This document shows positions 12,560 to 17,985 of a stretch of 64,000 bases of DNA, one piece after another. Origin of the DNA: Pseudomonadota bacterium (GTDB taxonomy: Bacteria; Pseudomonadota; Gammaproteobacteria; Burkholderiales; Burkholderiaceae_C). Made by a program: the position numbers and the translations under genes. Under the pieces are notes generated by a model that did no database searches, was not told where the DNA came from, and worked only from the letters and a program-made list of their open reading frames with translations. The stretch spans positions 1,449 through 65,448 of the forward strand of contig JAZKHH010000009.1 of the NCBI GenBank assembly GCA_040385465.1, in the 5' to 3' direction. Position 1 is the first letter of the stretch. Each line of letters opens with the position of its first letter.

Positions 12560-14479
12560 ATGAACCAACCGATCGTCGCCCCTTCGCTGCCACCGGCCCC
12601 GGCGGCTGACGCCGCCAGCGCTGCCTTGGCCGACGGCTTGGCACGTGCGCGCTCCGGCGGCATGCCCCTGCCGGAGCTGCTGGACCGGGCCCACCGGCTG
12701 CATCAAGACGGCTTGGCCGAAGCCTCCGCCCAGCTTTACGAGGATTGGATCGCGCACACTCAGTCACCCTTGCGGCACGTGGCCTGCTTCAATTGGGGCA
12801 CCGTGCTGGGCGCCTTGCAGCGCCATCCGCAAGCCGAGCAGGCCTACCTGCAAGCCATTGCCTTCAAACCTGATTTTCTGCAGGCCCGGTTGAACCTGGG
12901 CCACCAGCTCGAGCACCTGGGCCGGCCCGAAGAGGCCTTGGCGCAGTGGCGCCTGGTGCTGGAGCACAGCCCGCCCGAGCGGGGCGGTGAGGCGCAGACG
13001 CTGTACCTGCATGCGGTCAACAACCTGGCCCGCCTGTGCGAGCAGCTGCGCCAGTACGACCAGGCCGAGCGCTACATGGTGCTCAGCCTGCAAACCCAGC
13101 ACGACCAGCTCGACGTCATCCAGCATTACGTGCACGTGCGGCAGAAGCAGTGCGCCTGGCCGGTCTACACCACGGTGGGGGAGGTCACCGAGCACTTGTT
13201 GACGATCGGCACCTCGCCCTTGGCGATGTTGAGCGCCAGCGACGACCCGGCGCTGCAGCTGTTGGCCGCCCAGCGTTTCGTGCACAGCAAGGTGCCCAAG
13301 CCGCCCGCGGGCCCGGCGTTGCACACCCAGTTCCCGGCCCGCCAGGGCAAGCTGAAGATCGGTTATTTGTCGGGCGACCTGTGCATGCACGCCGTCGGCC
13401 TGCTGACCGGTGAGCTCCTGGGCCTGCACGATCGCGAGCGCTTCGAAGTCCACGGTTTTTGCTGGAGCCGCGAAGACGGCAGCGAGCAGCGACGCCGCCT
13501 GCGCGCCGGCATGGACCACTTCGTGCCCCTGGCCGGCGTCGACGACATCACCGCAGCGCGCCACATTGCGGCCCGCGGCATCGACGTGCTGGTCGACCTG
13601 CAAGGCCTGACCAACGGCGCCCGGCCGGCCATCCTGGGCCAGCGGCCCGCGCCGATCCAAGTCAGCTACCTGGGTTTCCCGGGCACCTCGTGCATTCCGG
13701 GTGTCGACTGGATCATCGCCGACCGCTTCGTGATGCCCGAAGACCTGCGCCGCTACTGCAGCGAGAAGCCGATTTACCTGTCTGACTGCTATCAGGTCAG
13801 CGACCGCCAGCGCGAGGTGGCGCCCAAGCCCACACGGGCGGCCTGCGGCCTGCCAGAAGACGCCTTCGTGTTCTGCTCCTTCAACAACAACTTCAAATTC
13901 ACCGAGCCGGTGTTTCAAAGCTGGATGCGGATCCTGCACGCTGTGCCGGGCAGTGTGTTGTGGCTGCTGGCCGACAACCCGTGGTCGCAGGAGAACATGC
14001 TGAAAACCGCCGACACCCACGGCGTGGCCCGCGAGCGCTTGATTTTTGCCCCCCGCGCTGCCCCGCCCGAGTACCTGGCGCGGTTCCAGCAGGCCGACCT
14101 GCTGCTCGACACCTTCCCCTACAACGCCGGCACCACGGCCAGCGACGCCCTGTGGATGGGCGTGCCGATCCTGACGTGTTCGGGCCGCACCTATATCTCC
14201 CGCATGGCCGGCAGCCTGCTGACCGCGGTCGGCCTGCCCGAGCTGATCACCGAGTCGCTGGCAGATTACGAGCAGCGGGCCATCCAACTCGGGCGCGAGC
14301 CGCAGCGGGTCGCGTCGCACCGGCGCTACCTGGCGGAGCACGGACGGCAGTCGCGCCTGTTCAACATCCCCGCCCTGGTGGGCCAGATGGACAACGCGTT
14401 TGAAGCTTTGGCGCTGGCCGAGCGGGCGCGTGACGCCCAGCGCCGTCAGGCGTCGACCTCACCGAAAGACCTGCCGTGA
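12560..14479 (+). CDS. TPR-repeat O-GlcNAc-transferase-like glycosyltransferase (SPINDLY/OGT type, CAZy GT41)
   Basis: The first ATG in the ORF with sensible protein context is 12560 (MNQPIVAP). N-terminal TPR-like repeats ([35 protein letters not shown]). C-half motifs [57 protein letters not shown] and [24 protein letters not shown]. Confidence 0.85.
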   Translation: [639 protein letters not shown]

Positions 14480-16761: not shown

Positions 16762-17985
16762 ATGGCGCGCACTGAGCCGGTTCTGGAGCAGGGCGATGCG
16801 GCCTACATGGCCGACATGCGGGCGGCCCAGTTGGTGGAAGCCACACCCCGAACCGCCTGGGCGCTGTACCTGATCCTGGCCGTGATGGTGTCGGCCGTGG
16901 CCTGGGCCTCTCTGACCCGGGTTGACGAGGTCACCCGGGCCGACGCGCGCATCATTCCCGACGGCCGCGAGCAGGTCATTGCCAGCCTGGAGGGCGGCAT
17001 CCTGCGCGAGCTGAAAGTCACCGAGGGCATGCAGGTCGAGGCCGGCCAGGAGCTGGCGCTGCTCGACCCGACCCGCTTCGAATCCCAACAAAACGAAGGC
17101 CAGCTGCGCCGCCTGGCTTTGCGCGCCACCCAAGCCCGGCTGATTGCCGAGGCCAACGGCCGGGAGCTGCGGTTTCCGCCCGAGGTGCTGGCGTCCGCAG
17201 CCCATGTCGAGGGCGAAACCGAAGTGTTCAACGTGCGGCGCCGGTCGATGCAGGAAGCGGTGAGCGCCAATGGCCGCAGCATCGACCTGCTGTCGCGCGA
17301 GCTGAAGGTGGCCGACGCCATGTCGTCCAAGGGCTTGATGTCCGAGGTGGAAGTGATGCGCTTGCGCCGCCAGGTCAACGACCTGCAACTGGCCAACCAG
17401 GAACGCGTCAACCGTTTCCGCCAGGAGGCCAGCACCGAACTGGTGAAAGTGCAAAACGAGGTCAACCAGATCGACGAGCAGATCGCCGGGCGCGCCGACG
17501 TGCTGCGCCGCACCGTGCTCACCTCGCCGGTGCGTGGTCTGGTGAAGAACATCCGCGCCAACACCCTGGGCGGCGTGGTCTCACCGGGCGCGGCGGTGAT
17601 GGAGATCGTGCCGCTGGGCCCGAAGGTGTTGATCGAAGCGCGCATCAAGCCTTCGGAAATTGGCTTCCTGCAAGTGGGCCAGAAAGCCCAGGTCAAGCTC
17701 AAAGCTTACGACTACACCTTGTACGGCGGGCTGGAAGGCGTGGTCGAGTACATCAGCCCTGATGCCCTGGGCGATGCCGAGCGCCCCGGGTCTGCCGACG
17801 CCACCTACTACCGTGCGCTGGTGCGCGCCGACCGCTCCGACCTCAAGGCGCGCGGCGCCACCTTGTCGGTGATGCCCGGCATGACCGCCACCGTCGAGGT
17901 GCGCACCGGCGAGCGTTCGGTGTTGAGTTTTCTGTTGCGGCCGCTGCTCAAGAGCAGGGAAGCATTCCGCGAACGTTCGGGTTGA
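16762..17985 (+). CDS. HlyD-family type I secretion membrane fusion protein
   Basis: N-terminal TM (AWALYLILAVMVSAVAWA), then RADARIIPDGREQVIASLEGGILRELKVTEGMQVEAGQELALLD, a long coiled-coil, and the C-terminal MPGMTATVEVRTGERSVLSFLLRPL motif. Confidence 0.9.
   Translation: MARTEPVLEQGDAAYMADMRAAQLVEATPRTAWALYLILAVMVSAVAWASLTRVDEVTRADARIIPDGREQVIASLEGGILRELKVTEGMQVEAGQELALLDPTRFESQQNEGQLRRLALRATQARLIAEANGRELRFPPEVLASAAHVEGETEVFNVRRRSMQEAVSANGRSIDLLSRELKVADAMSSKGLMSEVEVMRLRRQVNDLQLANQERVNRFRQEASTELVKVQNEVNQIDEQIAGRADVLRRTVLTSPVRGLVKNIRANTLGGVVSPGAAVMEIVPLGPKVLIEARIKPSEIGFLQVGQKAQVKLKAYDYTLYGGLEGVVEYISPDALGDAERPGSADATYYRALVRADRSDLKARGATLSVMPGMTATVEVRTGERSVLSFLLRPLLKSREAFRERSG

Follow-up and report, generated by a model that had tools for sequence, protein, structure and literature searches.

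This report concerns a block of three genes on the + strand of the stretch of bacterial DNA introduced above. We refer to the whole of that stretch, 64,000 nt, as 'the window', and searches of the window cover that length only. The first gene (12560..14479) encodes a 639-amino-acid (aa) protein in which tetratricopeptide repeats (TPRs) are joined to a glycosyltransferase of the GT41 (OGT/SPINDLY) type; the identical 639-aa product is annotated in an NCBI record of a metagenome-assembled genome (P0001). The second gene (14476..16728) starts with GTG and encodes a 750-aa ATP-binding cassette (ABC) permease/ATPase of the LssB family, the inner-membrane component of a type I secretion system (T1SS). 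The third (16762..17985) starts with ATG and encodes a 407-aa periplasmic adaptor of the HlyD family, or membrane-fusion protein (MFP). The TGA of the GT41 gene (14477-14479) is overlapped by the GTG of the ABC gene at 14476, so that the two genes share the letters GTGA, and 33 nt separate the ABC stop (16728) from the MFP start. The overlap is limited to the sub-clade to which the window belongs; in other relatives there is a short gap instead. Upstream of the block lie flhC, motA, motB, cheY and cheZ. An earlier note on this DNA, made from its letters, had described this arrangement and proposed that it could be a glycosylate-then-export module for a T1SS substrate. Its coordinates, its two quoted GT41 peptides, the GTGA overlap, the 33-nt gap and the position behind motAB-cheYZ were all recovered on direct reading of the sequence and of the translation of 12560-14479.

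GT41 enzymes are protein glycosyltransferases. To our knowledge, the targets of their bacterial OGT homologues are largely unknown, and the structure of one of these, XcOGT, has been used chiefly as a substitute for that of human OGT. The recognition in the window protein of TPRs and a SPINDLY/OGT catalytic half was borne out by profiles and structural relatives alike. Pfam Glyco_transf_41 (PF13844) matches with E=1.1e-79 and 268.6 bits (cutoff 25), in two stretches that span the GT-B half; TPR_1, TPR_2, TPR_12 and TPR_17 match N-terminally, within residues 75-184; and the top relatives in the PDB are XcOGT (2jlb; 2.6e-76) followed by human OGT (9e-75). The NGT equivalog model NF049992, in contrast, yields 25.2 bits against a cutoff of 1000 and spans merely 100 C-terminal residues. 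On these assignments the window enzyme is OGT-like and not NGT-like. The equivalents of His218 and Lys388 of XcOGT are H277 and K446, and these are kept in the window protein and in all of the relatives examined that are linked to ALTTAQ-repeat genes (see below). The equivalents of Thr467-Thr468, T525-T526, are conserved too, and the TT motif is kept in the ALTTAQ-linked relatives examined. About 200 columns of the GT-B half, these residues included, are invariant among 22 sequences, and the enzyme is probably active. The position of XcOGT His466 is occupied by Gly524. Glycine is invariant here within the window's clade, occurring in the group that comprises the window, Pseudomonas, Cereibacter and Rhodovastum enzymes, and histidine is found in the ALTTAQ-linked Rhizobium group.

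The ABC protein matches the LssB model TIGR03375 over residues 23-722 of its 750 (798.6 bits; cutoff 693.1), carries the Pfam domains ABC_membrane and ABC_tran, and scores below the cutoffs of the HlyB and PrtD models; the HlyB structure 7sgr aligns with residues 73-718. Residues 19-143 resemble Peptidase_C39 weakly (E=7e-4; 19.9 bits, below the gathering cutoff of 22). The position of the catalytic Cys is Ala24, and is Ala, Pro or Ser in 67 of 67 orthologues and Cys in none. The C39 His position is likewise lost, and is Ala in 63 of the 67. Judged by these residues, the N-terminus is a non-catalytic C39-like domain (the CLD class), and the suggestion that this is an LssB-type transporter with a C39-like domain that lacks the catalytic Cys was upheld. 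The same can be said of the adaptor, which had been taken for an HlyD-type MFP: it scores 314.9 bits with TIGR01843 (cutoff 208.65) and matches Pfam HlyD_3 and HlyD_D23.

To collect related loci, an alignment of GT41 orthologues was used to scan genomes, a single one for each species. This gave 80 loci in the Sphaerotilaceae, at 60-83% identity, from Rhizobacter, Methylibium, Ideonella, Roseateles, Pelomonas, Rubrivivax, Aquabacterium, Azohydromonas and other genera. Flanks were taken as 10 kb, and loci with enough sequence are termed 'evaluable'. Of 73 evaluable loci, 70 (69, plus L060) have the ABC gene directly 3' of the GT41 gene and in the same orientation; of the exceptions, two have an inverted T1SS a few kb off and one has no T1SS. 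The MFP gene comes next in 59 of the 60 loci that can be evaluated for it, and a gene of the TolC family, an outer-membrane factor (OMF) with a weak match to TIGR01844, occupies the fourth position in 44 of 55. The genes that flank the operon differ completely between lineages and are otherwise unrelated. The conserved unit is GT41-ABC-MFP-(OMF), and we regard its functional unity as established by this conservation. The earlier note had named, as the finding that would speak against its proposal, ABC/MFP pairs in relatives that lack an adjacent GT41 gene; the opposite was found. Some flanking genes recur in small numbers. Four loci (L031, L035, L070 and L077), for example, encode an asparagine synthase (GATase_7 + Asn_synthase) fused to a TOD1/MUCI70 glycosyltransferase-like domain, in a protein of ~1100 aa. 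The Ideonella sp. BN130291 locus (L019) has two tandem GT41 genes ahead of its ABC gene.

What might such a unit export? When the 1133 neighbouring ORFs were clustered, a single non-housekeeping family was recurrent, one of large, threonine-rich octad-repeat proteins whose C-terminal domain has the look of a Ca-binding one. The repeat is recognized as Pfam PF20080, ALTTAQ_rpt, with scores of 567-1192 bits, and a gene that combines it with a C-terminal self-processing module (SPM) lies within 10 kb of the GT41 gene in 8 of the 80 loci. A further large protein, of 2529 aa, is encoded directly upstream of the GT41 gene in Ideonella paludis (L039:543-8132, +); it bears weak similarity to the ALTTAQ proteins, and its N-terminus resembles, by eye alone, a filamentous-haemagglutinin (two-partner secretion) domain.

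The association of GT41, T1SS and ALTTAQ genes extends well beyond this family. When annotated plasmids were searched by tblastn with the window GT41, distant relatives of 36-54% identity came to light. On plasmid pCC1524 of Pseudomonas asturiensis, ALTTAQ ORFs are followed by a GT41 gene, which is convergent with genes for TolC, HlyD and a PrtD-type ABC protein. The ORFs (L084:1539-8830) are of 1032, 474 and 905 aa, with an SPM in the last one only, and are probably one gene of ~2400 aa broken by frameshifts or by errors in assembly of the repeats. On plasmid pA of Cereibacter sphaeroides 2.4.1, a 1561-aa 'ice nucleation protein' in fact consists of ALTTAQ repeats; it and a Calx-beta RTX protein adjoin GT41, an ABC protein with an N-terminal domain, and HlyD. 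Distances between GT41 and ALTTAQ genes are 1-8 kb in Rhizobium, Rhodovastum, Niveispirillum and Pseudorhizobium. Genes connected with glycans often flank the module: Rhizobium has GT2, GT25 and glf there, and Cereibacter has genes for methyl- and sulfotransferases. Together with the asparagine-synthase fusion above and the sugar genes that follow some OMF genes (below), they fit a glycoprotein theme. In all, GT41 genes are found beside ALTTAQ/SPM genes, as well as beside T1SS genes, in proteobacteria of three classes. The ABC proteins with which GT41 is paired belong to three subtypes (LssB, HlyB-like and PrtD), and recruitment of all three argues for a functional linkage rather than an inherited one.

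The search was also run in reverse. Metagenomes were scanned for ALTTAQ proteins that have the C-terminal domain, and 80 loci were returned, many of them on short contigs; 28 include a GT41 gene, often immediately downstream, 18 a T1SS ABC gene, and 13 both. Four of these loci were inspected individually (L090-L093). In L091, the ALTTAQ+SPM gene is followed by genes for a C39-ABC protein and an MFP; the GT41 gene is divergent from it (L091:5298-8924, -), and its 1208-aa product joins TPRs and a GT41 domain to a region that weakly resembles a C39 peptidase. In another, ABC and MFP genes are accompanied by one for a GT92 enzyme. XcOGT orthologues from Xanthomonas and Stenotrophomonas (L174:8919-11707 and L175:8914-11701) served as a negative control. 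They follow directly upon hemA and prfA (RF-1), with the OGT start overlapping the prfA stop in Xanthomonas, and no T1SS or ALTTAQ gene occurs in their neighbourhoods. XcOGT was rejected as a member of the same system on the strength of this housekeeping context, and the association with ALTTAQ and T1SS genes thus belongs to the present GT41 clade rather than to bacterial GT41 enzymes generally. In the case of a megaplasmid-borne Ralstonia GT41 (34% identity), too, neither an ALTTAQ gene nor a T1SS lies within 14 kb.

The ALTTAQ proteins themselves have the features of T1SS substrates. Their octad, A-L-[S/T]-[S/T]-A-Q-[V/I/L]-A, is repeated dozens to hundreds of times per protein, and 83-99% of octads have Ser/Thr at position 3 or 4. 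The proteins are acidic (pI 4.0-4.5), essentially free of cysteine, and without a signal peptide. The C-terminal domain, where present, matches the SPM of FrpC (6sjw; E=5e-14, TM 0.84, 49% identity), and a precomputed Pfam label, PF26745 'SPM', concurs. SPMs are described as confined to some of the RTX proteins that T1SSs secrete (PMC7078468). An FrpC-type SPM, acidity, lack of cysteine and lack of a signal peptide are together consistent with export by a T1SS. In 74 of 74 distinct ALTTAQ-linked SPMs (from L030, L031, L084 and L090-L173), Thr/Ser-Pro takes the place of the scissile Asp-Pro of FrpC and ApxIVA. These SPMs form a distinct subclass; the classical clip-and-link chemistry may not apply to it, and any cleavage would have to proceed in another way.

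One such protein, P0143, was modelled with AlphaFold (m4c4f6a0983cc; mean pLDDT 76, and 85-95 in the repeats, residues 1-370). Each modelled octad forms a helix of 5-6 residues and a loop of 2-3, and the octads are stacked as a long solenoid. Beyond the repeats come a beta-rich domain and a low-confidence C-terminal tail of ~100 residues. Likenesses of the repeat part in the PDB are weak only, to mesothelin and HEAT-like repeats. The model places the Ser/Thr dyad at the N-cap and N1 positions of the helix and the Gln at N3, the arrangement of a capping box.

Taken together, these observations suggest that GT41-ABC-MFP constitutes the inner-membrane portion of a pathway dedicated to glycosylating a protein and then exporting it. 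The GT41 enzyme, with some 3-4 TPRs and an OGT-like GT-B half, would act in the cytoplasm, adding a sugar to Ser/Thr residues of the unfolded cargo. The LssB-type ABC protein with its C39-like domain, the HlyD adaptor and a TolC-type channel would then export the modified cargo in one step, directed by a C-terminal signal. The likeliest cargo would be an ALTTAQ-repeat protein, usually one with a Ca2+-dependent SPM of the FrpC type, and in the present genome its gene would have to lie outside the 64-kb window. On balance, we think it rather probable that the GT41 enzyme O-glycosylates cargo of the ALTTAQ type in the cytoplasm ahead of T1SS export. The earlier proposal of a glycosylate-then-export module is supported by the conserved operon and by its recurrence in other classes, the glycosylation being the step that we infer. 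Its premise that the adjacency of the genes is meaningful stands, since the adjacency is conserved; the cargo class, ALTTAQ with SPM, has been added from the relatives, and was not seen in the window. A broader proposition, that this GT41 clade and its T1SS make up a widespread, undescribed pathway in Alpha-, Beta- and Gammaproteobacteria for heavily O-glycosylated, mucin-like ALTTAQ proteins with a Thr/Ser-Pro SPM, we advance tentatively, as falling a little short of probable.

Several points weigh against this interpretation. The first is the enzyme itself. The His466 of XcOGT that has become Gly contacts the UDP phosphate, and the identity of the donor sugar, and even activity, are made uncertain by its replacement. 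Secondly, the cargo of this genome is assumed. As the earlier note had found for the block, the window as a whole has no candidate substrate: tblastn with ALTTAQ/SPM proteins and inspection of the large ORFs (43521-47261, a PAS histidine kinase; 48660-52178, Mfd) revealed no ALTTAQ-, SPM- or RTX-type substrate gene in it. The same is true of ALTTAQ genes within 10 kb in 72 of the 80 Sphaerotilaceae loci (90%). Nor does the window contain a TolC-type gene (tblastn with six OMF orthologues), again as noted before, and its T1SS must therefore use an OMF encoded elsewhere. Its nearest relatives, L004 and L005, are without the OMF gene as well; all three have lost this gene or never had it. The term 'orphan' that the earlier note gave to the T1SS is apt for the window, then, but not for the relatives, most of which have the fourth gene. 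Thirdly, the association is incomplete from the side of the cargo. A GT41 gene is seen in only 35% of the ALTTAQ+SPM loci; one of the four inspected (L090) has neither GT41 nor T1SS; and the ALTTAQ protein of Cereibacter has no SPM. Fourthly, the regular spacing of Ser/Thr in the octads is not evidence for glycosylation, because the capping box accounts for the periodicity structurally; we discarded it as proof once the AlphaFold model had placed the dyad at the helix N-cap. Finally, a search of the literature revealed no published coupling of GT41 to a T1SS; the author of the earlier note likewise knew of none.

The missing cargo genes invite a different reading, namely that the T1SS exports something else, such as a classical RTX or a small protein, or that the GT41 enzyme acts on a component or a regulator of the secretion system, ALTTAQ proteins being one client among several, or no client here at all. 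OGT-family enzymes are often multi-substrate, and the Calx-beta RTX protein that adjoins the Cereibacter module could be such a cargo. If so, the recurrence of the ALTTAQ association in three classes and in both directions of search would have to be explained, and so would the failure of a second cargo family to recur among the clustered neighbour ORFs. We consider this reading unlikely, if still a serious one.

The genes upstream of the block raise another possibility: that the enzyme is a flagellar or motility glycosyltransferase, directed at flagellin or another flagellar protein, with which the T1SS genes are merely co-transcribed. TPR-glycosyltransferases that modify flagellin exist (FlmG). 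In 20 of the 80 loci the flagellar master-regulator and motor genes, flhDC-motAB-cheYZ, are no more than 10 kb from GT41, co-oriented or divergent, and a second GT41 paralogue is found upstream of flhDC in L059 and L077 (Aquabacterium-type). ALTTAQ genes adjoin flagellin genes (fliC-flaG-fliD-fliS) in seven metagenomic loci (L092:8225-11859, together with L094, L112, L113, L132, L139 and L142), and flagellar export genes in Rhodovastum; the one at L089:14877-21987 adjoins genes for flagellin or for flagellar export. The contigs concerned are unrelated to one another. Strong promoters of the sigma-28 type, CTCAAG-N16-GCCGATA[AC], occur 60-115 nt upstream of GT41 in four loci (L027, L049, L057 and L082), which are Roseateles/Rubrivivax-type loci without flagellar genes nearby. 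Against this, 60 of the 80 loci keep GT41-ABC-MFP with no flagellar neighbour, no flagellin gene adjoins GT41 in the window, and flagellin is exported by the flagellar apparatus, not by T1SS. Upstream of GT41 in general there is no sigma-28 signal (mean score 8.0 of 12, versus 7.6 in shuffled sequences), and no E. coli-type FlhDC box was found, at 13 or more matches of 16 in the window or at 10 or more of 16 upstream of GT41.

The operon appears, moreover, to have a control region of its own. An element of ~65 nt at 12460..12524 (+), defined by alignment of 25 loci, ends ~40 nt 5' of the GT41 start in the window. It consists of the blocks GGAAT.., C(G)CTATTG..GAYC (CGCTATTG..GAYC) and ACAATCG, which are kept across genera. 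In 29 loci (E<1e-3), an nhmmer profile places the element ~100 nt ahead of GT41; two (L022:4773-4834 and L028:5804-5865) have a second copy before the ABC gene, and there are no further sites. There is no second copy in the window, the flg operon at ~31-42 kb included. RNAalifold returned no consensus fold (0 pairs; 25 loci) and there is no match in Rfam, and the idea of a structured RNA was rejected on these grounds; a simple promoter model, TTGA-N16-21-ACAAT, fits only 1 of 81 loci and was also set aside. The element is probably an operon-specific promoter with a putative regulator-binding operator. Further upstream, just past the cheZ stop, lies the UUCG-tetraloop hairpin that the earlier note had placed between cheZ and the block. 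Direct reading finds it at 12383..12402 (+) as CAGCGACC-UUCG-GGUCGCUG, with a stem of 8 bp, inside a structure of -38.8 kcal/mol (z=-4.6), and L004 and L005, the two closest relatives, retain it with wobble changes. It has no U-tract and was not called in a terminator scan; it separates the cheYZ unit from the GT41 operon. The sigma-28, FlhDC-box and upstream-motif scans speak against membership of the flagellar regulon, and a flagellar function for the enzyme seems to us quite improbable. Of the tie to motility that the earlier note had thought possible, the proximity of flagellar genes in a quarter of the loci remains, and a shared promoter element does not; the link is a hint, not a finding.

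A third possibility, which we rate as marginally less probable still, would dispense with catalysis. The TPR-GT41 protein would be a cytoplasmic chaperone or adaptor that keeps the cargo unfolded and passes it to the ABC protein. TPRs bind proteins, the coupling to the ABC gene is tight in the window, with its GTGA overlap, and the loss of the histidine that contacts the UDP phosphate would be understandable in a protein of this kind. The strong conservation of the GT-B half, down to His277, Lys446 and the TT motif, would not, and the ALTTAQ-linked Rhizobium enzymes retain the histidine.

Alternatively, ABC, MFP and OMF might export a non-protein glycoconjugate that is built with the help of GT41. 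Sugar-nucleotide genes (FdtA, DegT and acetyltransferase) do follow the OMF gene in ~9 loci. The ABC protein, however, is a full-length LssB protein above its curated cutoff, with a C39-like domain for substrate docking; the MFP is of the class that serves type I protein secretion; and GT41 enzymes modify proteins. We judge this very improbable. That GT41 and T1SS genes are adjacent by chance is hardly credible, given the order that nearly all evaluable loci keep and its independent recurrence in other classes.

The ORF that abuts the MFP stop (17982-18578) is, as the earlier note had supposed, NTF2-like (SnoaL_2; Pfam E=4e-15); conserved in 0 of 83 loci, it was ruled out as part of the module. 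It is followed by a divergent HxlR regulator, a methyltransferase and gcvP (20618-23578). The minus strand at 25268-25504, upstream of the glycine-cleavage genes, carries a tandem pair of glycine riboswitch aptamers (RF00504; 60 and 53 bits).

The GT41, LssB, HlyD, ALTTAQ_rpt and SPM families are all known; what appears to be new is their combination. No mention of the ALTTAQ_rpt family was found in the literature searched. Gene order ties a clade of GT41 enzymes to a specific export machine and to a highly repetitive family of cargo proteins, and the question this raises can be put to experiment in carriers that can be cultured, such as Cereibacter sphaeroides 2.4.1 (pA), Pseudomonas asturiensis (pCC1524) and isolates of Ideonella and Roseateles. 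If the proposed pathway proves real, a native class of substrates would be known for the first time for bacterial OGT homologues, as would a T1SS coupled to glycosylation. Glycosylation would join acylation and sulfation as modifications of T1SS cargo, and T1SSs would be seen to be capable of passing glycosylated polypeptides. It would also define a class of bacterial mucin-like surface or matrix proteins with a variant clip-and-link module, and this variant SPM would be relevant to protein-ligation tools based on the SPM of FrpC.

Several known systems resemble the proposed pathway in part. Its logic recalls that of HMW1C/NGT and HMW1 of Haemophilus influenzae, where many sites of a giant secreted adhesin are modified in the cytoplasm by an enzyme of the GT41 family, export follows, and the enzyme's gene is clustered with those for secretion. 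There, however, an enzyme without TPRs adds N-linked hexose at NXS/T, and secretion is of type Vb; the window protein, with its score far below the NGT cutoff, is of the OGT kind. XcOGT (XCC0866; PDB 2jlb) and human OGT share with it the architecture of short TPRs and GT-B half and the catalytic His and Lys, and XcOGT differs in the hemA-prfA-OGT context of its orthologues and in having His466 where the window clade has Gly. The proposed pathway also resembles HlyC-HlyA-HlyBD and RaxST-RaxX-RaxAB, clustered systems in which the cargo is modified in the cytoplasm before one-step export through ABC, MFP and TolC. The modifications are acylation of Lys (HlyC) and sulfation of Tyr (RaxST) rather than glycosylation, and the Rax transporter, unlike the window ABC protein, has an active C39 peptidase. 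The candidate cargo resembles the clip-and-link RTX proteins FrpC and ApxIVA: it is acidic and Ca-binding, is presumably secreted by a T1SS, and carries a domain 49% identical to the SPM of FrpC. It is distinguished from them by its Thr/Ser-Pro junction, its lack of GGxGxD repeats and its N-terminal ALTTAQ octads, and FrpC has no described GT41 partner. Glycosylated products that pass through machinery of the ABC/T1SS type are, finally, not without precedent. The glycocins (SunS/SunT) are examples, although they are small peptides from Gram-positives, made with GT2 enzymes and exported by active C39 transporters. The cyanobacterial RTX-like proteins SwmA and oscillin, both tied to motility, are others, for which the parts of PMC3034196 that we consulted assign no glycosyltransferase.

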